A DNA stretch of 64,000 nt from an uncultured Chitinophagales bacterium (GTDB lineage Bacteria; Bacteroidota; Bacteroidia; Chitinophagales; BACL12), in the NCBI GenBank assembly GCA_964638865.1, contig CAZXBG010000002.1, forward strand, positions 24,427 through 88,426, in the 5' to 3' direction. Numbering within the stretch: the first letter of the stretch is position 1; each line of letters opens with the position of its first letter. The notes below the pieces were generated by a model. It worked only from the letters and a program-made list of their open reading frames with translations. It did not search any database and was not told where the DNA came from. Positions 3,006 through 53,498 of the stretch are shown piece after piece. Position numbers and translations under genes: made by a program.

Positions 3006-4544
3006 TTAACTCAACAATATTTCTCCGCTCATTTCCGGTGGAATATCCAATCCCATTATGGTTAACAGGGTAGGAGCAATATCTCCCAACTTTCCGTTTT
3101 TTATTGCAGTAAATTTATTATCATTGGAAATATAAAATACAGGAACGGGGTTTGTGGAGTGTTGTGTATTTGGTGTTCCATCTTCATTTATTTCGTTGTC
3201 TGAATTTCCATGATCAGCTGTGAGTATCACATCGTAGTTATTTTCTAATGCAGCCTCTACAACTTCACCCACACAAGTATCAACCGCTTCGCAGGCCTTT
3301 ATTGCCGCTGAAAATATTCCGGTATGTCCAACCATATCGGCATTTGCAAAATTCAGGCAAATAAAATCTGTTTCCTTTTTATTAAGCTCTGCAACAATTG
3401 CATCCTTTACTAGGTAAGCACTCATTTCAGGCTGAAGATCATAGGTTGCAACCTTAGGAGAAGAAATCATAATTCTTTTTTCTCCTTCAAATTCTTTTTC
3501 TCTGCCACCACTAAAGAAAAAAGTGACATGCGGATATTTTTCTGTTTCCGCAATTCTGATCTGTTTTAATTTATTATTCTCAATAATTTCACCAAGTGTT
3601 TTCGAAAGATCATTTTTTTCAAATAACACGCCAATGTTTGTCCAGCTGTGATCGTACATCGACATCGTAATATAATGGAGATCGATTTTAAACATTTCAA
3701 ATTCGGGAAAATTTTGTTGTGTTAATACAGTTGTAATTTGTCTGCATCGATCTGTTCTGAAATTAAAAACGATAACTACATCGTTTGATTTAATTGTTGT
3801 AATTGGATCATTATTATCATCCACACAAACAATGGGTTTAATAAATTCATCTGTAATATCTTCCTTATAATTATTTTCTAAACTTTTAACAGGATCTTTT
3901 GTTGGAGTTCCTTTACCATGTACCAATAGATCATACGCAAGTTTTATGCGTTCCCAGCGTTTATCTCTGTCCATGGCAAAATATCTTCCACAAACACTTG
4001 CAATTTTACCACCCGTAATTTTTAAATGGGTATCCAACTTTTTAATAAATCCACTTCCACTTTTAGGATCACAATCTCTTCCATCTGTAAATGCGTGAAT
4101 AAATACTTTATCCATATTCGCATTTTCATCTTTTAAAATTTCACACAATCCAACCAAATGATTAATATGCGAATGCACTCCACCATCACTTACCAAACCC
4201 ATTAAATGAATATTTTTATTATTTGCGTTTGCATATTCAATTGCATTCAATAAAACTTTATTTTTAGCAAGTTCTCCGTTTTTAATTGCAAGTGTTATTC
4301 TTTGTAGTTCCTGGTAAACAATTCTGCCCGCTCCTAAATTAAGATGTCCAACTTCACTGTTTCCCATTTGTCCTTCAGGCAATCCTACAAATTCACCATC
4401 TGTTCTCAATTCCGCATTTGGATATTTTTTGTAATAATTATTTACATTCGGAGTAAAAGCCTGCGCGATAGCAGAAGCTGCAGCATTTTTACCATGTCCC
4501 CAACCATCCATGATGATCAGCATCGCCCGTTTATTCATATTCAT
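3006..4544 (-). CDS. gpmI: 2,3-bisphosphoglycerate-independent phosphoglycerate mutase
   Basis: MNMNKRAMLIIMDGWGHG.., SDGGVHSH and ADHGN motifs. Start moved to the ATG at 4544, because the 44-codon extension in track ORF 3006..4676 runs through repeat words. Confidence 0.93.
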   Translation of the reverse strand: MNMNKRAMLIIMDGWGHGKNAAASAIAQAFTPNVNNYYKKYPNAELRTDGEFVGLPEGQMGNSEVGHLNLGAGRIVYQELQRITLAIKNGELAKNKVLLNAIEYANANNKNIHLMGLVSDGGVHSHINHLVGLCEILKDENANMDKVFIHAFTDGRDCDPKSGSGFIKKLDTHLKITGGKIASVCGRYFAMDRDKRWERIKLAYDLLVHGKGTPTKDPVKSLENNYKEDITDEFIKPIVCVDDNNDPITTIKSNDVVIVFNFRTDRCRQITTVLTQQNFPEFEMFKIDLHYITMSMYDHSWTNIGVLFEKNDLSKTLGEIIENNKLKQIRIAETEKYPHVTFFFSGGREKEFEGEKRIMISSPKVATYDLQPEMSAYLVKDAIVAELNKKETDFICLNFANADMVGHTGIFSAAIKACEAVDTCVGEVVEAALENNYDVILTADHGNSDNEINEDGTPNTQHSTNPVPVFYISNDNKFTAIKNGKLGDIAPTLLTIMGLDIPPEMSGEILLS

Positions 4545-4560
4545 TACCACAAAGATAGGA

Positions 4561-4758
4561 ATCGTGAGGCGTGAATCGTGAGGTGTGAGTCCGAAAAGTT
4601 CTAGGTGAAGAAACTCACTTTGTGAATGGTGAGTGGTCAGTGGTGAGTGACATCCTATAAGGATCAAACTCTCCAACTCACCACTGAAAACTCACTGAGA
4701 GTATAAACTTTCGGCCATTGATAGTTAAAACTCATTACTCATTACTCATTACTCATTT
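4561..4758. repeat. Divergent intergenic block built from heptamer word arrays plus a 12-bp inverted repeat
   Basis: atcgtga ggcgtga atcgtga ggtgtga (4561-4588). tgtgaat ggtgagt ggtcagt ggtgagt (4621-4648). TCAGTGGTGAGT (4637-4648) pairs with ACTCACCACTGA (4676-4687). ctcatta x4 (4731-4758). Confidence 0.9.
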
Positions 4759-4831
4759 CGTGATTGTTAAACTTTTCTTAATTTTGGTATGGTTTTAGCA
4801 AATTCAGTGCATTGACCAAACAATAACAAAC

Positions 4832-5233
4832 ATGACAAAATTTAAATTTAAAAAGGCATCTCTTCTTCTGTTGGCATTGCCACTTTTGATATTTGCAACA
4901 GCAACAGGTGATTTAGATAATATTTCTGCCGCTATAAAAGCCGGAAATTCAAAAGCCTTAGCTGAATATTTCGACAATACTGTTGAAGTAAAGATTGCCA
5001 ACAAAGAAGGCGCATACAGTAAAAGCCAAGCAGAAGCGATCGTAAAAGATTTTTTTACAAAAAACCCGCCTAAAACTTTCAAATTTATTCACGATGGTCC
5101 ATCTGGCGGAAATAATGCACATTATGCAATAGGTTCGCTTGGCACTGATAAAGGTAAATTCAGAACTTATGTTTACCTGAAAAAAGTTGGCGATAAATTC
5201 GTGATACAGGAATTAAGTTTCGAAAATGAGTAG
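4832..5233 (+). CDS. Small secreted protein, DUF4783-like
   Basis: Signal peptide, then GDLDNISAAIKAGNSKALAEYFDNTVEV... It overlaps the nadC start by 8 nt, an arrangement I recall for DUF4783 genes. Confidence 0.6.
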   Translation: MTKFKFKKASLLLLALPLLIFATATGDLDNISAAIKAGNSKALAEYFDNTVEVKIANKEGAYSKSQAEAIVKDFFTKNPPKTFKFIHDGPSGGNNAHYAIGSLGTDKGKFRTYVYLKKVGDKFVIQELSFENE

Positions 5234-25048: not shown

Positions 25049-26179
25049 TTATAAAGTACCTCTCAATTCCTGTTCTCGTTCTATTGCCTCAAATAACGCT
25101 TTGAAATTCCCCTTCCCAAAACTTTTTGCACCATGGCGCTCAATAATCTCATAAAATACAGTTGGCCTGTCTTCTACCGGTTTAGTAAATATTTGCAATA
25201 AATATCCTTCTTCATCTCGGTCGATTAAAATATTCAGCCGTTTCAGGTCTTCGAGATTTTCATCTATATGTCCAACACGGTCCAATACATCTTCATAGTA
25301 AGCTCCCGGAACCTGTAAAAATTCTACACCTCGCTTTCTCAGTTCGGATACTGTTTCCAAAATATTATCAGATGCAACTGCTATATGCTGAACACCTGCT
25401 CCTTTATAAAATTCAAGGTATTCATCTATCTGACTTTTCTTTTTTCCTTCGGCAGGTTCGTTGATAGGAAATTTAACAAATCCATTTCCGTTGGAAACTA
25501 CTTTACTCATCAATGCGGTATATTCTGTTGAAATATCTTTATCATCAAAAGTTATCAATAATTTGAAACCCATTACATCTTCATAAAATTTCACCCATTC
25601 GTTCATGCGTCCTAACTCCACATTCCCAACACAGTGATCAATATATTTTAATCCAATCGGTTGAATATTGATATTAGATTCTTTCGCTTCAAAGCCCGGC
25701 ATAAATGCTCCTGTATAATTTTTTCTTTCCACAAATTTGTGAATTGTTTCACCATAAGTATGAATTGCAGAAACCACCACTTCTCCAAATGCATCCTTCA
25801 TCACGGTTGGTTGCATCGCAGATTTTGCCCCACGTTTCACAGTCTCTTCATAACTTTTTGTGGCATCATCCACCATAAGTGCAAGCACTTTAACTCCATC
25901 TCCGTGTTTTTTTACATGCATGGATATTTCACTTTCCGGATCGAAAGAGGAGGTAAGCACGATTCGTATCTTATCCTGCTGAAGAACATAACTCGCCTTG
26001 TCGCGAACCCCGGTTTCCAATCCGGCATATGCCACTAATTTATATCCCCACGCCGACTGATAATAATACGCAGACTGCTTAGCATTTCCCACATAAAATT
26101 CAATATGGTCAGTTCCATTTAACGGAAGGAAGTCGATGGTTTCGGGGGAGGTGGTTGGTTGATAGTTTATTGTTTCCAT
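25049..26179 (-). CDS. hppD: 4-hydroxyphenylpyruvate dioxygenase
   Basis: 376 aa with two VOC modules. ..IDHCVGNVELG.., ..GVQHIA.. and ..FYEIIER.. motifs. Confidence 0.9.
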   Translation of the reverse strand: METINYQPTTSPETIDFLPLNGTDHIEFYVGNAKQSAYYYQSAWGYKLVAYAGLETGVRDKASYVLQQDKIRIVLTSSFDPESEISMHVKKHGDGVKVLALMVDDATKSYEETVKRGAKSAMQPTVMKDAFGEVVVSAIHTYGETIHKFVERKNYTGAFMPGFEAKESNINIQPIGLKYIDHCVGNVELGRMNEWVKFYEDVMGFKLLITFDDKDISTEYTALMSKVVSNGNGFVKFPINEPAEGKKKSQIDEYLEFYKGAGVQHIAVASDNILETVSELRKRGVEFLQVPGAYYEDVLDRVGHIDENLEDLKRLNILIDRDEEGYLLQIFTKPVEDRPTVFYEIIERHGAKSFGKGNFKALFEAIEREQELRGTL

Positions 26180-26191
26180 AATAATTTATTG

Positions 26192-26826
26192 ATGTACCAA
26201 TGTACCAATGAATAAATGTACCAATGAACAGCCAAAACCTTCACAACCTTGGTTTGTTTGTTTTGCTGATCAAAGGGATTTGTTTGATGATTATTTAACG
26301 ATTATTTTTTTGATGAAAATATTATTTTTCCTATTATTCTGTTTATAATTATTAATTTTTCTATTAAAAAATCGCAATCTGGATAATTTGGTGATTGTTT
26401 ACATAAACTTAACCAATAAAAAGTTTCCTCTCCTTTCTTTGCTGCGATCTTCATTTTATGAATAAAATCAGCTTTGCTCTCTGCATTTTGTGCTTCATTT
26501 GCATTTGCTCCAATTGAAGTACCCGACCCAAAAAGTTGACGCGCTAAAATATATTTTGTTTGCGATTCTAACTTTTCAGTATATTCAATAATAAGCAAAC
26601 TAAATTCAAAAGTCAGCTTTAAGATGATATTATCATCACTATAGTAATCATGCATCGTTTTTAAGGGTTTACGATAAATAAAGAAATCTACTGTATAATA
26701 TATCTAAGTTTTTTTATAAATAATTTTAAAATTTCAAATAATTTATTTCTTATTTCGTTTTTATTTCGCCAATAAATTAATTCGGCTGTTTATTGGTACA
26801 TTGGTACATTTTTATATTGGTACATT
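26192..26826 (-). mobile_element. IVS-like cassette: inverted GTACCAAT-word arms enclosing a four-helix-bundle gene
   Basis: The left arm 26192-26233 (atgtaccaatgtaccaatgaataaatgtaccaatgaacagcc) and the right arm 26784-26826 (ggctgtttattggtacattggtacatttttatattggtacatt) are imperfect reverse complements. By hand alignment about 33 of 40 positions match, with terminal AACAGCC/GGCTGTT. The cassette fills the hmgA-hppD gap exactly. Confidence 0.45.
26302..26655 (-). CDS. Four-helix-bundle protein (23S rRNA intervening-sequence protein / Avd-like family)
   Basis: 117 aa. ARQLFGSGTSIGANANEAQNAESKADFIHKMKIAAKKGEETFYWLSL is the family signature. Confidence 0.85.
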   Translation of the reverse strand: MHDYYSDDNIILKLTFEFSLLIIEYTEKLESQTKYILARQLFGSGTSIGANANEAQNAESKADFIHKMKIAAKKGEETFYWLSLCKQSPNYPDCDFLIEKLIIINRIIGKIIFSSKK

Positions 26827-27982
26827 AACTTAGCCACGACAAATAATAATCCTTATCCTCTATCCCCAGCGCTTCCTCTGTCAATTGAAGTGGACGAAAC
26901 GGATCTACCATCAATGCAAGCTCGTGGGTTTCTTTTTTGCCAATACTGCCTTCGTAAGTTCCGGGGTGCGGGCCATGTGGGATTCCACCGGGATGAAGAG
27001 TTATCATCCCTCGTTCTACATGTTTTCTACTCATAAATTCGCCGTCGACATAATAAAGAATTTCATCACTATCGATATTGCTGTGATTATATGGAGCAGG
27101 AATTGCGAGCGGATGATAATCAAACATGCGTGGAACAAAACTGCAAACAACAAAATTGCGTGCCTCAAAGGTTTGATGAACCGGAGGCGGTTGATGAACA
27201 CGTCCTGTTATCGGTTCGAAATTGTGAATAGAAAATATCCAGGGATAAACATAACCATCCCAACCAATCAGGTCAAAGGGATGGTTTGCATATTGATAGG
27301 GATAAATAATTCCCTGTTTTTTTATTTTGAAAAAGAAATCACCTTGTATATCATTGGTTACTAAATTAGTGGGCGTTTTAATATCACGTTCACAAAATGG
27401 AGAATGTTCCATCAATTGTCCTACCTTATTTAAATATCGTTTTGGAAATTCTATTGGTGAAAAAGATTCCAGTATAAATAATCTATTCTCCTCTGTATTA
27501 AAATGAATCTGATATAATGTTCCTCTTGGTATAATAATATAATCACCATATACAAATTTTAATTCCCCATACATTGTATATAACGTTCCGCTTCCTTCAT
27601 GGCAAAATATCATTTCATCAGCATCCACATTTTTATAAAAATAATCTGTCATGCTTTTTCTCGGAGCAGCAAGTGAAATGTGAAGGTCACTATTTACCAG
27701 CACGGCTTTTCTGCTTTCCAAATAATCATCTGCAGGTTTTATTTTAAATCCGTGCAGCGACCTGTGTTTTAATTGTTTGGATAAAACCACTTTTGGTTCA
27801 ACTGAATAAGCTTCCCCAACCTGTTTTATTTTTGTTGGAGGATATAAGTGATACAACAATGAATAGGTATTACTGAAACCTTCTGTTGAAAACAATTCCT
27901 CATGATATAAGGTGCCATCAGGCTTCCTGAATTGTGTATGGCGCTTTTCCGGTATTTCCCCCAATTTGTTGTAAAATGGCAT
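26825..27982 (-). CDS. hmgA: Homogentisate 1,2-dioxygenase
   Basis: MPFYNKLGEIPEKRHTQFRKPDGTLYHEELF.. and the ..HPGGIPHGPHPG.. cupin region. 385 aa, as in Bacteroidota HmgA. Confidence 0.9.
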   Translation of the reverse strand: MPFYNKLGEIPEKRHTQFRKPDGTLYHEELFSTEGFSNTYSLLYHLYPPTKIKQVGEAYSVEPKVVLSKQLKHRSLHGFKIKPADDYLESRKAVLVNSDLHISLAAPRKSMTDYFYKNVDADEMIFCHEGSGTLYTMYGELKFVYGDYIIIPRGTLYQIHFNTEENRLFILESFSPIEFPKRYLNKVGQLMEHSPFCERDIKTPTNLVTNDIQGDFFFKIKKQGIIYPYQYANHPFDLIGWDGYVYPWIFSIHNFEPITGRVHQPPPVHQTFEARNFVVCSFVPRMFDYHPLAIPAPYNHSNIDSDEILYYVDGEFMSRKHVERGMITLHPGGIPHGPHPGTYEGSIGKKETHELALMVDPFRPLQLTEEALGIEDKDYYLSWLS

Positions 27983-38128: not shown

Positions 38129-38244
38129 AATAAATAAGTTTTCTTCTTCGGATGGTCAAATAAATAACTTACTATTTTATACAAACAACCAAGGTTCGCC
38201 AAATTCCAGTTAATTTAACCCAGAACTTTGAACCAGTGGAAGTT

Positions 38245-38354
38245 GGCAGTGGCAGTTAGCAGTGGCAGTAGGCAGTGGCAGTAGGCAGTGGGCAGTGGCA
38301 GTTAGCAGTGGGCAGTGGCAGTTAGCAGTGGCAGTAGGCAGTGGCAGTAGGCAG
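38245..38354. repeat. GCAGT-based tandem array (6/7/13-nt units, about 110 bp)
   Basis: Units ggcagtggcagtta / gcagtggcagtag / gcagtgg are repeated with higher-order structure. The same word recurs at 52539-52581. Confidence 0.9.
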
Positions 38355-51158: not shown

Positions 51159-51179
51159 GGTGAATGGTGAATGGTGAGT
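51159..51179. repeat. Tandem heptamer GGTGAAT x3
   Basis: ggtgaat ggtgaat ggtgagt begins about 3 nt after the E2 stop codon. Confidence 0.8.
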
Positions 51180-51333: not shown

Positions 51334-51362
51334 CTTTTCAGTGTTACTTGGTTTATCAAAAA

Positions 51363-51714
51363 AAGGATAATTCAATTGGAAATTAAATTATCATTCCAAC
51401 TCCAATTTCTTCGCAAAACTTCGTGTCATTACGCCTTCGTGGCAAAAAAATTATCCAATAGAAAATTAAGTTATTGGTAGCATGATAATTTCGCTCCGGA
51501 ACCTATGTCAGGTGAAAAACACCTGGCTACGGCGTTGAGAAAGGATAATTCAATTGGAAATTAAATTATCATTCCAACTCCAATTTCTTCGCAAAACTTC
51601 GTGTCATTACGCCTTCGTGGCAAAAAAATTATCCAATAGAAAATTAAGTTATTGGTAGCATGATAATTTCGCTCCGGAACCTATGTCAGGTGAAAAACAC
51701 CTGGCTACGGCGTT
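51363..51714. repeat. Perfect tandem duplication, 174-bp unit, 178-bp period
   Basis: 51363-51536 and 51541-51714 are identical by eye, separated by gaga. Each unit holds three hairpins: GATAATT..AATTATC, CCAATA..TATTGG and CAGGTG-aaaaa-CACCTG. Confidence 0.9.
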
Positions 51715-51766: not shown

Positions 51767-51794
51767 ATTGTCAATTGTCGATTATCAATTGTCA
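51767..51794. repeat. Tandem heptamer ATTGTCA x4
   Basis: attgtca attgtcg attatca attgtca ends 5 nt from the stop codon of the minus-strand gene at 51800. Confidence 0.85.
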
Positions 51795-51799
51795 ATTAA

Positions 51800-52538: not shown

Positions 52539-52581
52539 GGGCAGTGAGTGACAGTGTGCAGTTGGCAGTGGCAGTGGGCAG
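52539..52581. repeat. GCAGT-based word array, second locus
   Basis: gggcagtgagtgacagtgtgcagttggcagtggcagtgggcag starts 5 nt after the CoA-binding gene stop. It is followed (52641-52700) by a tail similar to the one after the 38245 array. Confidence 0.8.
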
Positions 52582-53471: not shown

Positions 53472-53498
53472 CCATTCTCCATTCTCCATTCTCCATTG
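53472..53498. repeat. Tandem heptamer CCATTCT x4
   Basis: The array abuts the RDD gene stop codon (53499-53501). Its reverse complement GGAGAAT is one mismatch from the GGTGAAT array at 51159. Confidence 0.85.

Follow-up and report, generated by a model that had tools for sequence, protein, structure and literature searches.

The PF05635 family of four-helix-bundle (4HB) proteins is among the commonest 'hypothetical' families of Bacteroidota and cyanobacteria, and a gene of this family is also found in intervening sequences (IVSs) of 23S rRNA. ORF-bearing 23S rRNA IVSs were reportedly described in Leptospira by Ralph and McClelland in 1993, and to our knowledge the ORF that some of these IVSs carry has since remained without a function or a known origin. 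Repeats which fold in transcripts are also found in the Correia/nemis elements of Neisseria and similar MITEs, which are co-transcribed into mRNAs, where their inverted repeats form a hairpin that RNase III cleaves. In the REP/BIME-RAYT systems, the RAYTs are Y1 (IS200/IS605-type) transposases and the REPs are single imperfect palindromes. The STRR heptamers of heterocystous cyanobacteria are intergenic tandem 7-nt words, with several types per genome; we know of no described link between them and either PF05635 genes or inverted pairing. The 23S rRNA of Coxiella burnetii contains an IVS with an S23p ORF (Warrier et al. 2016, PMC4990558), beside which GACAGAT heptamers are found in a copy number that varies between strains, RNase III cutting at the first repeat. 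Within the Bacteroidota, the BrickBuilt MITE of Porphyromonas gingivalis contains a 23-nt minisatellite, and promoter activity has been reported for this element (PMC4596501).

Organisation of the hmgA-hppD junction

The window, i.e. the whole 64-kb stretch of DNA analysed here, contains a 4HB gene between two genes of tyrosine catabolism, all three being encoded on the minus strand, as are the features described below. The upstream cistron is hmgA (homogentisate 1,2-dioxygenase, 26825..27982), assigned from the ORF listing, the Pfam domain HgmA_N and named homologues, and the downstream one is hppD (4-hydroxyphenylpyruvate dioxygenase, 25049..26179), assigned from the ORF listing and Pfam. 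The 117-aa ORF between them (26302..26655) matches the profiles PF05635 (61.7 bits, cut-off 33.8) and TIGR02436 (75.6 bits, cut-off 24), and Pfam finds no other domain in it. Its closest solved structure is PDB 2rld (chain A, E 5e-17), which was deposited with five chains. The protein carries the motif S-x3-N-x2-E (as SIGANANE), has a pI of 6.7 (homologue median 8.4) and is under strong purifying selection (dN/dS ~0.06).

The gene is bracketed by two inverted arms of 48 nt each, identified by a repeat search and word counts: the 5' arm in transcript sense (26781..26828) and the 3' arm (26189..26236), which are 81% complementary and 544 nt apart. Both are built of 8-nt slots (six in the 5' arm), filled with GTACCAAT words and an inner GAACAGCC/GGCTGTTC word. 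The 5' arm reads GTACCAAT (26823-26816), ATAAAAAT, GTACCAAT (26807-26800), GTACCAAT (26799-26792) and AAACAGCC (26791-26784), and the 3' arm GGCTGTTC (26233-26226), ATTGGTAC, ATTTATTC, ATTGGTAC and ATTGGTAC, the last one ending at 26194. The 8-nt register is kept in both arms; read inward, the order is W-x-W-W-AAACAGCC on the right and W-W-x-W-GAACAGCC on the left, with slots 2 and 3 swapped, and the two arms do not make a perfect inverted repeat. The window holds nine copies of GTACCAAT, where 2.1 ± 1.3 would be expected and 100 shuffles all stayed below nine; six of the copies fall in the two arms.

Arms and 4HB gene together fill the whole junction. The TAA stop codon of hmgA (26827-26825) lies inside the 5' arm, with the first GTACCAAT word starting at 26823, and an A/T-rich leader of 14 nt separates the last word of the 3' arm from the ATG of hppD (9-14 nt depending on how the arm end is defined). 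Sequence and orthologue comparison delimit an AT-rich spacer or leader (26656..26780) that separates the 5' arm from the start codon of the 4HB gene, and a aacccttaaaaac motif which is common to the orthologues stands directly before the ATG. A small hairpin (aaacc-N11-ggttt, 26235..26255) can be read from the sequence between the 4HB stop codon and the 3' arm, and orthologues, also by reading, have a hairpin of another sequence at the same spot. The hairpin received no score in the terminator scan. As for a promoter and terminator of the 4HB gene itself, the sigma-70-type and terminator scans gave background only, Bacteroidota promoters being outside that scan. By eye, the -7 motif of Bacteroidota is matched at only 7 of 8 positions, the -33 element being absent. 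No known RNA family was matched in 25800-27200 with Rfam at E values up to 1.

The inverted-arm cassette around the 4HB gene at the hmgA-hppD junction is thus confirmed as real. A previous sequence-only reading had proposed the 117-aa 4HB gene, the occupation of the whole same-strand junction and the overlap of the arm with the hmgA stop codon, all of which agree with our results. The imperfect inversion of the arms stands as well, although their length is 48 nt and not ~43 nt; the 3' arm does end close to the hppD ATG, at 14 nt (9-14 nt by the choice of arm end) where 12 nt had been given.

Comparison with described elements

Like the ORF-bearing 23S rRNA IVSs, the cassette would hold its PF05635 gene in the loop of a long stem made by terminal inverted repeats, lie in sense orientation within the host transcript, and reside there stably without disrupting host function; with the Coxiella IVS it also shares the short tandem words of strain-variable copy number next to the ORF. 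It differs in its host, which is the spacer of a protein-coding operon rather than helix 9, 25 or 45 of the 23S rRNA, and in its arms, which are made up of 8-nt words sharing one consensus throughout the phylum. The cassette ORF is under strong purifying selection, whereas that of Coxiella is decaying, and excision by RNase III, which has been shown for the 23S rRNA IVSs, would be expected for the cassette by analogy. A classical rRNA IVS is ruled out, since the flanking genes are the coding genes hmgA and hppD and no rRNA is found here or in 80 related loci, all of which lack 23S motifs.

The Correia/nemis elements are similar in having inverted repeats within the spacers of operons, where these fold once transcribed into mRNA, with processing sites that uncouple the neighbouring cistrons. 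Unlike the cassette, they are short and non-coding, occur in many near-identical copies, and have defined termini and target duplications, while the cassette has a conserved gene, no defined termini and, as judged from the comparisons below, vertical inheritance. The REP/BIME-RAYT systems likewise have a gene between inverted copies of a short repeat that is also found gene-less at many intergenic sites within one genome, and their repeats are lineage-specific too; in contrast to a RAYT, the cassette protein is a four-helix bundle for which no catalytic motif is known, and the cassette repeats consist of 7-8-nt words in tandem. Intergenic arrays of 7-nt words, as in STRR repeats, occur throughout the window. 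BrickBuilt is, like the cassette, an intergenic element of Bacteroidota with spacer-less tandem repeats and small inverted ends, but it has no gene, no inverted arrays and no PF05635 association, and was dropped as the identity of the cassette, being a different element (PMC4596501). The Avd protein of diversity-generating retroelements (DGRs) is a remote four-helix-bundle homologue, and pentamers have been reported for both (PMC10053308; PMC4990558, citing Lin et al. 2006). Unlike in a DGR, no reverse transcriptase is encoded in the window, and there is no sequence match to phage Avd families. Template and variable repeats were not noted by eye, the repeats in 26100-26900 being the word arrays only.

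History of the junction

Many Chitinophagales, Flavobacteriales and Sphingobacteriaceae have the order hmgA-4HB-hppD. The cassette is present in relatives whose hmgA identity is as low as 61%, and at this junction the divergence of the 4HB protein tracks that of hmgA. Judging from these comparisons, the arrangement is old, and inheritance of the copy at the hmgA junction has been vertical across orders. Two cultured and tractable strains also carry the hmgA-4HB-hppD cassette: Flavobacterium sp. UW10123 (L183) and Tenacibaculum geojense CCUG 60527 (L146). In one relative (L212) the 4HB gene is absent and the 5' array is kept together with 16 nt of the interior. Since the array is retained, this is a deletion derivative and not a clean empty site, and gene-less relatives of the junction look like losses. 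The cassette had been taken for an insertion into a normally contiguous gene pair, with an empty junction to be sought in relatives. This does not agree with the conserved gene order, and a recent insertion is ruled out by the relatives carrying the cassette and by the L212 deletion.

Orthologous cassettes differ in their words (GTACCAAT, GTGCAAAT, GTGTAAAT/GTAACAAT, GTGCTGAT, AAGTGTGA, ATTAGCGA, TAATTAGC or CAATTTGT), and without exception the words of one arm match those of the other. Two strains (L216 and L218) differ by exactly one 8-nt word. The comparison of orthologues shows the words of the two arms turning over in concert.

Survey of 4HB loci

We surveyed 78 4HB loci of Bacteroidota; the 80 related loci represent the closest relatives of the window protein and not a random sample of the family. 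Genes were called roughly, as the longest ORFs from 100 aa upwards with the first ATG as start, which makes the distances to neighbouring start codons approximate. A flanking inverted-repeat score of at least 30 was required for arms. Such arms flank 44 of the 78 Bacteroidota 4HB loci, compared with 1 of 289 shifted control positions, and in the other 34 they are below threshold. The window arms score 51 in this scheme, the maximum among the 289 controls being 47. Arm lengths range from 9 to 108 nt, well-supported arms having mostly ~20-50 nt, and are underestimated by the local alignment; there is no mode near 40 nt, where 'five words per arm' for a pentamer would be expected to show.

The arrays have a periodicity of 8 nt (autocorrelation of 0.36-0.38 at lags 8, 16 and 24, against 0.27) and share, phylum-wide, the inward-reading word consensus R-A-T-K-T-G-N-N. 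Their polarity is inward, with TTTG counted 83 times against 4 for CAAA, and ATGT 62 times against 0 for ACAT. The orientation of the genes is biased as well: 69 of the 78 are co-directional with both neighbours ('++') and 3 are '--', while random insertion predicts 36% (p ~8e-22). The arms usually run from the upstream stop codon to just short of the next start codon, the 5' arm starting at most 10 nt from the end of the upstream ORF in 29 of the 36 co-directional loci with clear arms. In roughly half of the loci it also extends to at most 20 nt from where the 4HB gene starts, which leaves no room for a promoter there and makes a 4HB promoter unlikely. Outside the Bacteroidota, a locus from an organism with 62% GC (L090) has an equal design with 7-nt words. 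The window cassette is therefore one instance of a widespread class, in which a sense PF05635 gene lies between co-directional genes and is flanked by inverted arrays of 7-8-nt words. No published description of the arms or of the operon architecture was found in the open-access literature, so one may exist elsewhere.

Word arrays without the gene

Intergenic arrays of 7-8-nt words are abundant in the window and in related contigs. The other arrays of the window consist of unrelated 7-mers, and in L090 an array of 8-mers lies 1.2 kb from the 7-mer arms. Cargo-less arrays of cassette words occur at other loci as well; they are one-sided and therefore not stems. One contig (L031) carries two decayed cassettes (~80% alike by eye) and a solo array with common words, and two loci (L125 and L113) are miniature versions without the 4HB gene. 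Tandem GTACCAAT arrays are found in many unrelated metagenome contigs with GC contents from 23% to 68%, mostly without a 4HB gene among the matches listed, which rules out GTACCAAT as a genome- or cassette-specific signature. The conserved word consensus and the cargo-less arrays are beyond what pure pairing explains.

Predicted pairing of the arms

The duplex energy of the window arms is -45.6 kcal/mol, compared with -10.2 ± 3.3 in shuffles. For an 851-nt transcript, the ensemble is predicted to hold about 35 arm-to-arm pairs, and the MFE and centroid structures both have the arms paired. All nine Chitinophagales orthologues are predicted to form 25-65 long-range pairs, and for seven of them the duplex energy lies beyond all 100 dinucleotide shuffles; L222 and L214 do no better than shuffles. 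When partners were compared among 43 cassettes, the 5' arm paired best with its own 3' arm in 16, and the latter was among the top three in 33. The energy models show that the predicted long-range stem would be thermodynamically favoured. The stems are imperfect because the slot order is not mirrored between the arms, which are often very unequal (L216 has at least 12 words in one arm and 4-5 in the other, L077 has 9 spaced words in one and 3 tandem ones in the other). Arm mismatches compatible with G·U pairing are not in excess in the sense RNA (59 vs 73; by locus 10 vs 21), and wobble asymmetry was dropped as a sign of RNA-level selection.

Interpretation and alternative explanations

We favour, with a probability of about one half, the explanation that the cassette is a long-resident, co-transcribed IVS-like stem-loop in the hmgA-hppD operon, the arms of which pair in the operon RNA. 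The 4HB gene, in most copies probably without its own promoter, would be transcribed with the host operon, and the two arrays would then pair; being word arrays, they could do so in several registers and tolerate slippage. Pairing would loop out the 4HB cistron, and a single stem would then have the stop codon of hmgA and the start codon of hppD at its base. By analogy with the 23S rRNA IVSs of Coxiella and Leptospira, this stem may be a substrate of RNase III, in which case cleavage would free the 4HB mRNA and leave the hmgA and hppD mRNAs intact. Alternatively, the closed stem could keep the two host cistrons coupled. Either way, the cassette would be nearly harmless to the operon.

Pairing of the arms in the transcript had been suggested in the sequence-only reading, and the predicted fold agrees with it. 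The analogy with 23S rRNA IVSs drawn there is strengthened by the recurrence of the architecture in dozens of operon junctions, by arms that stay complementary despite word change and by the tandem words of Coxiella (PMC4990558). The picture given there of the arms as simple terminal repeats has to give way to slippage-prone word arrays with a phylum-wide consensus, which also occur cargo-less.

The arrays, e.g. (GUACCAAU)n or (GTACCAAT)n, could instead be putative recognition sites of the 4HB protein on RNA or single-stranded DNA, with a pentameric ring sitting on tandem 8-nt words, as TRAP does on triplet repeats, and arm complementarity being secondary to the words that the arms have in common. 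Such binding might serve autoregulation, protection of the protein's own mRNA, or an upkeep and spread similar to that of RAYT-REP systems. The Avd protein, a remote relative, contacts structured RNA, which is in line with this. So are the phylum-wide inward consensus, the cargo-less arrays and hairpins of cassette words at other loci, the words shared by the two cassettes and the solo array on the L031 contig, and the five chains of 2rld together with the pentameric toroid of the Xanthomonas homologue (Lin et al. 2006, as cited in PMC4990558). However, words vary between arrays of one genome (the 7-mers of the window; the 7-mer arms and 8-mer array of L090), their identity evolves faster than the conserved surface motif of the protein, and the protein, with its pI below the homologue median, is not basic. 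We consider this explanation unlikely.

Still less likely is a mobile element at the DNA level, of transposon or MITE type, in which an enzyme provided in trans would act on the arrays as terminal repeats, with the 4HB gene as cargo or a mobility cofactor and the RNA stem as incidental. Thousands of family members in many different junctions would fit this, as would the two similar decayed copies on the L031 contig, the gene-less miniatures L125 and L113, and a word polarity that is fixed relative to the interior as in terminal inverted repeats. Against it, the hmgA-junction copy has been inherited vertically across orders, with 4HB divergence tracking hmgA, and L212 is a deletion derivative rather than a clean empty site. 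Length and word order differ from arm to arm, and defined termini are absent; no target-site duplication is seen at their ends (flanks aagTTAA/TGTACC... and ...GGTACA/TCAAtaa), and the annotation of neighbours with Pfam gives no transposase in or near the cassette. The 69 sense against 3 antisense copies would in any case require selection at the level of expression.

It is very improbable that the arms are functionless, i.e. microsatellite-like arrays that form easily in the AT-rich spacers of these genomes and are kept alike in inverted orientation by template switching (quasi-palindrome correction) or gene conversion. The many 7-8-nt intergenic arrays of the window and related contigs, the one-word copy-number differences between strains and the missing G·U bias would be accounted for in this way. 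The inverted pairing is nevertheless specific to 4HB genes (44/78 loci vs 1/289 controls), it persists at the same junction in at least three orders despite word turnover, and the arms are placed exactly at stop and start codons; we also know of no established mechanism for template switching over 400-600 nt.

An Avd-type accessory gene of a DGR is close to refuted. PF05635 is a remote relative of Avd and the family most often encountered around reverse transcriptases of DGRs (PMC10053308), and this remote homology is what stands of the link once proposed. However, the gene is surrounded by Pro_dh, hmgA, hppD and a PAS histidine kinase, in a junction context conserved in many genomes, the reverse transcriptase sought for that link is absent from the neighbourhood and the 64-kb window (where the sole ORF with a YxDD-like motif is DUF58), and there is no PHROG or PADLOC match.

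A broader and quite doubtful possibility is an element system spanning bacterial phyla, in which the 4HB cassettes would be the autonomous members and the cargo-less hairpins and one-sided arrays their derivatives. The pentamer would recognise one word per subunit to control the processing of hairpin-loop elements or to propagate them, and the 23S rRNA IVSs would represent a special case, having settled in helices of the rRNA. If this were true, the IVS ORF would gain a function and an origin, and the system might also explain the intergenic repeats of the STRR type and the reported 'CRISPR association' of PF05635. Associations of PF05635 with cas loci have been published (PMC3936711, PMC10910872), and may just reflect the habit of these genes of sitting between co-directional genes.

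Outside rRNA, 4HB genes are thus found systematically as sense genes of operon spacers, between self-complementary word arrays which adjoin the stop and start codons on either side, and orders have preserved this arrangement over a very long time. What had seemed peculiar to some pathogens becomes a general and testable design. For operon annotation and expression models in Bacteroidota, this means that 4HB genes should not be counted as ordinary operon members.

Anatomy of the hmgA-hppD junction

The hmgA (positions 26825-27982 of the window) and hppD (25049-26179) genes, both on the minus strand, are separated by a junction of 645 nt which holds a four-helix-bundle (4HB) ORF of 117 aa (26302-26655, minus strand). 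This gene belongs to the PF05635 family, matching both PF05635 (61.7 bits, cut-off 33.8) and TIGR02436 (75.6 bits, cut-off 24), and its nearest solved structure is the Bacteroides protein 2rld (E 5e-17). A repeat search returned inverted arms of 48 nt, 81% complementary, at the two ends of the junction: the 5' arm (in transcript sense) at 26781-26828 and the 3' arm at 26189-26236, minus strand. Both are built in an 8-nt register, with the words, in transcript sense, GTACCAAT-ATAAAAAT-GTACCAAT-GTACCAAT-AAACAGCC in the 5' arm and GGCTGTTC-ATTGGTAC-ATTTATTC-ATTGGTAC-ATTGGTAC in the 3' arm. The hmgA stop codon contains the start of the first 5'-arm word, and the hppD ATG lies 14 nt beyond the end of the last 3'-arm word. 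This far exceeds what chance would give: the window has 9 copies of GTACCAAT (2.1 expected), 6 of them inside the arms, and the local-alignment score of the arms is 51, while a score of at least 30 is reached at 1 of 289 control positions. The predicted RNA duplex of the arms has an energy of -45.6 kcal/mol (-10.2 +/- 3.3 for shuffles), and RNA folding pairs them in both the MFE and centroid structures, while the ensemble is expected to contain about 35 pairs between them. The cassette of inverted arms and 4HB gene described in the sequence-only reading is thus borne out, and pairing of its arms in RNA is predicted.

Survey of 4HB loci

A 4HB alignment was used to scan a single genome of each species, which yielded 80 loci, all on Bacteroidota-like contigs, of which 78 were usable. 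Flanking inverted repeats with a score of at least 30 were present at 44 of them, compared with 1 of 289 control positions shifted by 1-1.5 kb, and the flanks show a lag-8/-16/-24 periodicity of 0.36-0.38 against a background of 0.27. The arm-bracketed 4HB design is therefore general. The surveyed arms consist of arrayed 8-nt words (e.g. TTGAAAAT, GTGCTGAT, GTGAAGAT). Read inward from either end, these words share the consensus R-A-T-K-T-G-N-N, of which the window word AATGTACC is a variant; within 5' arms, TTTG is found 83 times and CAAA 4 times, and ATGT 62 times and ACAT never. The 4HB gene is co-directional with both neighbours in 69/78 loci (about 36% expected under random insertion, p about 8e-22), and lies antisense inside a co-directional pair in only 3. 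Among the 36 co-directional loci with clear arms, 29 have a 5' arm starting within 10 nt of the upstream ORF end, and 3' arms mostly stop about 10 nt short of the first ATG of the next ORF, as placed by crude gene calls. At roughly half the loci, the 5' arm extends to less than 20 nt from the 4HB start, which leaves no room for a promoter of its own. No 23S rRNA motifs were found in the surveyed 4HB loci.

The same junction in relatives

The exact 4HB protein of the window was found only on metagenome contigs, with the same neighbours as here: Pro_dh, hmgA, 4HB, hppD and a PAS histidine kinase; the nearest hmgA proteins are from Chitinophagales. Among the relatives for which the junction was fetched (percentages give the identity of hmgA to that of the window), the 4HB gene occupies the same place in L206 (96%), L208/L209 (90%), L210/L211 and L216-L218 (89%), L221/L222 (86%) and L219 (78%). 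All of these have arms with differing words (GTACCAAT; GTACCAAT and GTGCAAAT; GTGCTGAT/GTGCTAAT; AAGTGTGA; GTGCAAAT), and in each the 3' arm is dominated by the complement of the main 5' word. L216 and L218 have identical hmgA genes and 3' arms differing by exactly one 8-nt word. L210 also contains, at 4229-4509, a tandem duplication of a 3' arm module (an AT-rich stretch of about 40 nt followed by GGCTGTTC and four ATCAGCAC-type words), so that arms can grow by whole-module duplication besides single-word slippage. The otherwise identical L211 (GCA_016706255.1) has about 500 nt of C/T-rich low-complexity sequence between 4HB and hppD (about 4330-4850), absent from L210 and probably a long-read assembly artefact. 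Two relatives are without the 4HB gene: Pedobacter psychrophilus (76%), with a junction of 130 nt, and L212 (90%), which derives from a deletion and does not represent an empty site, since it retains the 5' array and 16 nt of cassette interior also found in L208.

The hmgA-4HB-hppD arrangement recurs in 9 of the 80 surveyed loci, from Sphingobacteriaceae, Flavobacteriales, Flavobacterium and Tenacibaculum, at 61-67% (hmgA), 63-68% (hppD) and 49-65% (4HB) identity to the window, each with its own matched words (e.g. ATTAGCGA/TCGCTAAT, TAATTAGC/GCTAATTA, CAATTTGT/ACAAATTG). 4HB identity broadly declines along with hmgA identity; compared with that of L206, the 4HB gene of the window has a dN/dS of about 0.06, and its synonymous sites are close to saturated. 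The junction cassette is therefore old, vertically inherited and constrained at the protein level, and its arms turn over in concert. Of the proposal that an IVS-like (23S rRNA intervening sequence), RNA-looping cassette had been inserted between hmgA and hppD, the looping stands as the best reading, but the cassette is ancient rather than inserted.

Word arrays outside the cassettes

Searching metagenomes for two words in tandem gave at least 120 stretches on contigs of 23-68% GC. Among the matches listed, only L077 and L031 (two decayed copies) have 4HB genes, in the same arrangement, with a GTACCAAT array before the gene and a ATTGGTAC array after it that differ in their number of words. 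One-sided GGCTGTTC-ATTGGTAC-ATTTATTC-ATTGGTAC... arrays occur on many contigs of about 35% GC belonging to the same series of samples, often directly past a stop codon. These belong to a longer repeat, dispersed and at least about 100 nt in size (L026 600-850, L058 2120-2350, L061 2230-2460, L011 4100-4260), of the form ...gtcgagg.cg.cga..tttgttaattt..taatcgggtaatttg.taatt...tgcc and ending in GGCTGTTC-ATTGGTAC-ATTTATTC-(ATTGGTAC)n, much like the 3' arm of the window, with no 4HB gene nearby; the L061 copy lies about 75 nt past a stop codon, beside a (TCATTAC)x10 array. L125 is a miniature version with an AT-rich interior of about 150 nt. At L113 379-421, a minimal hairpin (GTACCAAT, a 19-nt loop, ATTGGTAC ATTGGTAC) is placed precisely between the stop of a clpP-like gene and the start of a clpX-like gene, giving the appearance of cassette arms that stand 'empty' in an operon spacer.

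High-GC contigs have tight hairpins of opposite polarity, (ATTGGTAG)n-loop-(CTACCAAT)n. Those on contigs of 62-65% GC (L020 1250-1650, L034 1100-1320, L086 4740-4950, L112 100-350) consist of 8-nt AT-rich words, (ATTGGTAG)n-loop-(CTCCCAAT/GTACCAAT)n, whose conservation in GC-rich genomes suggests a sequence-specific use. In L090 (62% GC; 1480-2150), a divergent PF05635-like gene with the motif SVSANIGEG stands between, and is co-directional with, a trpS-like and a pabA/trpG-like gene. On either side of it are inverted arrays of 7-nt words (GTAACGA/GTAATGC), the 5' one overlapping the upstream ORF end and stop codon; the design is thus not confined to Bacteroidota.

Within the window, a cargo-less intergenic hairpin at 4559-4760 ((GAATCGTGAGGCGT)x2 and GGTGAGT/GGTCAGT facing ACTCACC/ACTCACT and (ACTCATT)x4) is similar to the cassette arms, except that its words are 7 nt long and it encloses no gene. 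Other intergenic tandem arrays (946-1003, 38234-38354, 52547-52581, 51159-51177, 51767-51797 and 53472-53497) have words of 6-13 nt, with TCCTATA, GGCAGTG/GCAGTAG, GGTGAAT, ATTGTCA and CCATTCT. These arrays, in which the genome is unusually rich, recall the STRR heptamers of cyanobacteria. A 178-nt intergenic unit at 51362-51714 is tandemly duplicated with 100% identity; the second copy is either very recent or a product of misassembly.

Proposed mechanism and alternatives

The 4HB gene is probably transcribed as part of its host operon, given its sense orientation, the lack of promoter room and the way the cassettes fill operon spacers exactly. Arm complementarity is kept while the words change in at least 8 lineages at one junction, the own 3' arm is the best partner of the 5' arm in 16 of 43 cassettes, and 25-65 long-range pairs are predicted in 9/9 Chitinophagales orthologues; together these argue for pairing of the two arrays in cis, with operon RNA as its obvious place. 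Such pairing would loop out the 4HB cistron and put the upstream stop and downstream start at the base of one stem. In ORF-bearing 23S IVSs, RNase III excises a stem-loop carrying the same gene family, and in the Coxiella IVS it cuts at the first of several heptamers that vary in copy number (PMC4990558). By analogy, RNase III processing could yield a separate 4HB mRNA without disrupting either host cistron; in a variant, the closed stem might instead keep the two host cistrons coupled. We give this IVS-like stem-loop reading, processing or coupling included, a probability of roughly 0.5.

Three other explanations are kept alive by several misfits. G·U-compatible arm mismatches are not in excess in the sense RNA (59 vs 73), the arms are often unequal with an unmirrored slot order, duplex energy is no better than that of shuffles in 2 orthologues, and pure pairing leaves the conserved word consensus and the one-sided arrays unexplained. 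The first, recognition of the words by a 4HB pentamer in the manner of TRAP or of RAYT/REP, is unlikely. Somewhat less probable still is a DNA-level mobile element, the junction cassette being vertically inherited. Neutral arrays homogenised by replication or conversion are the least probable of the three. The reading as a diversity-generating retroelement (DGR) with its accessory protein Avd is close to excluded.

Relation to known systems

RNase III also processes MITEs within mRNAs, and the cassette may work likewise. The best reading remains that it works as an ORF-bearing rRNA IVS does, although by location it is not one; it also does not qualify as a REP-RAYT system, a DGR, or a MITE whose ends are defined. 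Full-text searches of the open-access literature turned up no account of the inverted word arrays, of the consensus they share or of the operon-spacer habit. CRISPR surveys list PF05635 with cas loci, e.g. between cmr3 and cmr2 in Pleurocapsa, and genes wedged between cas genes have been taken as functionally associated (PMC3936711, PMC10910872). Since 4HB genes habitually sit between co-directional genes, this habit may be the simpler reason, with no CRISPR function needed. The finding extends to a whole protein family and touches on what IVS ORFs are, a question of long standing, and, as the hmgA-4HB-hppD cassette is also found in cultured Flavobacterium (sp. UW10123) and Tenacibaculum (T. 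geojense CCUG 60527) strains, it is directly testable.
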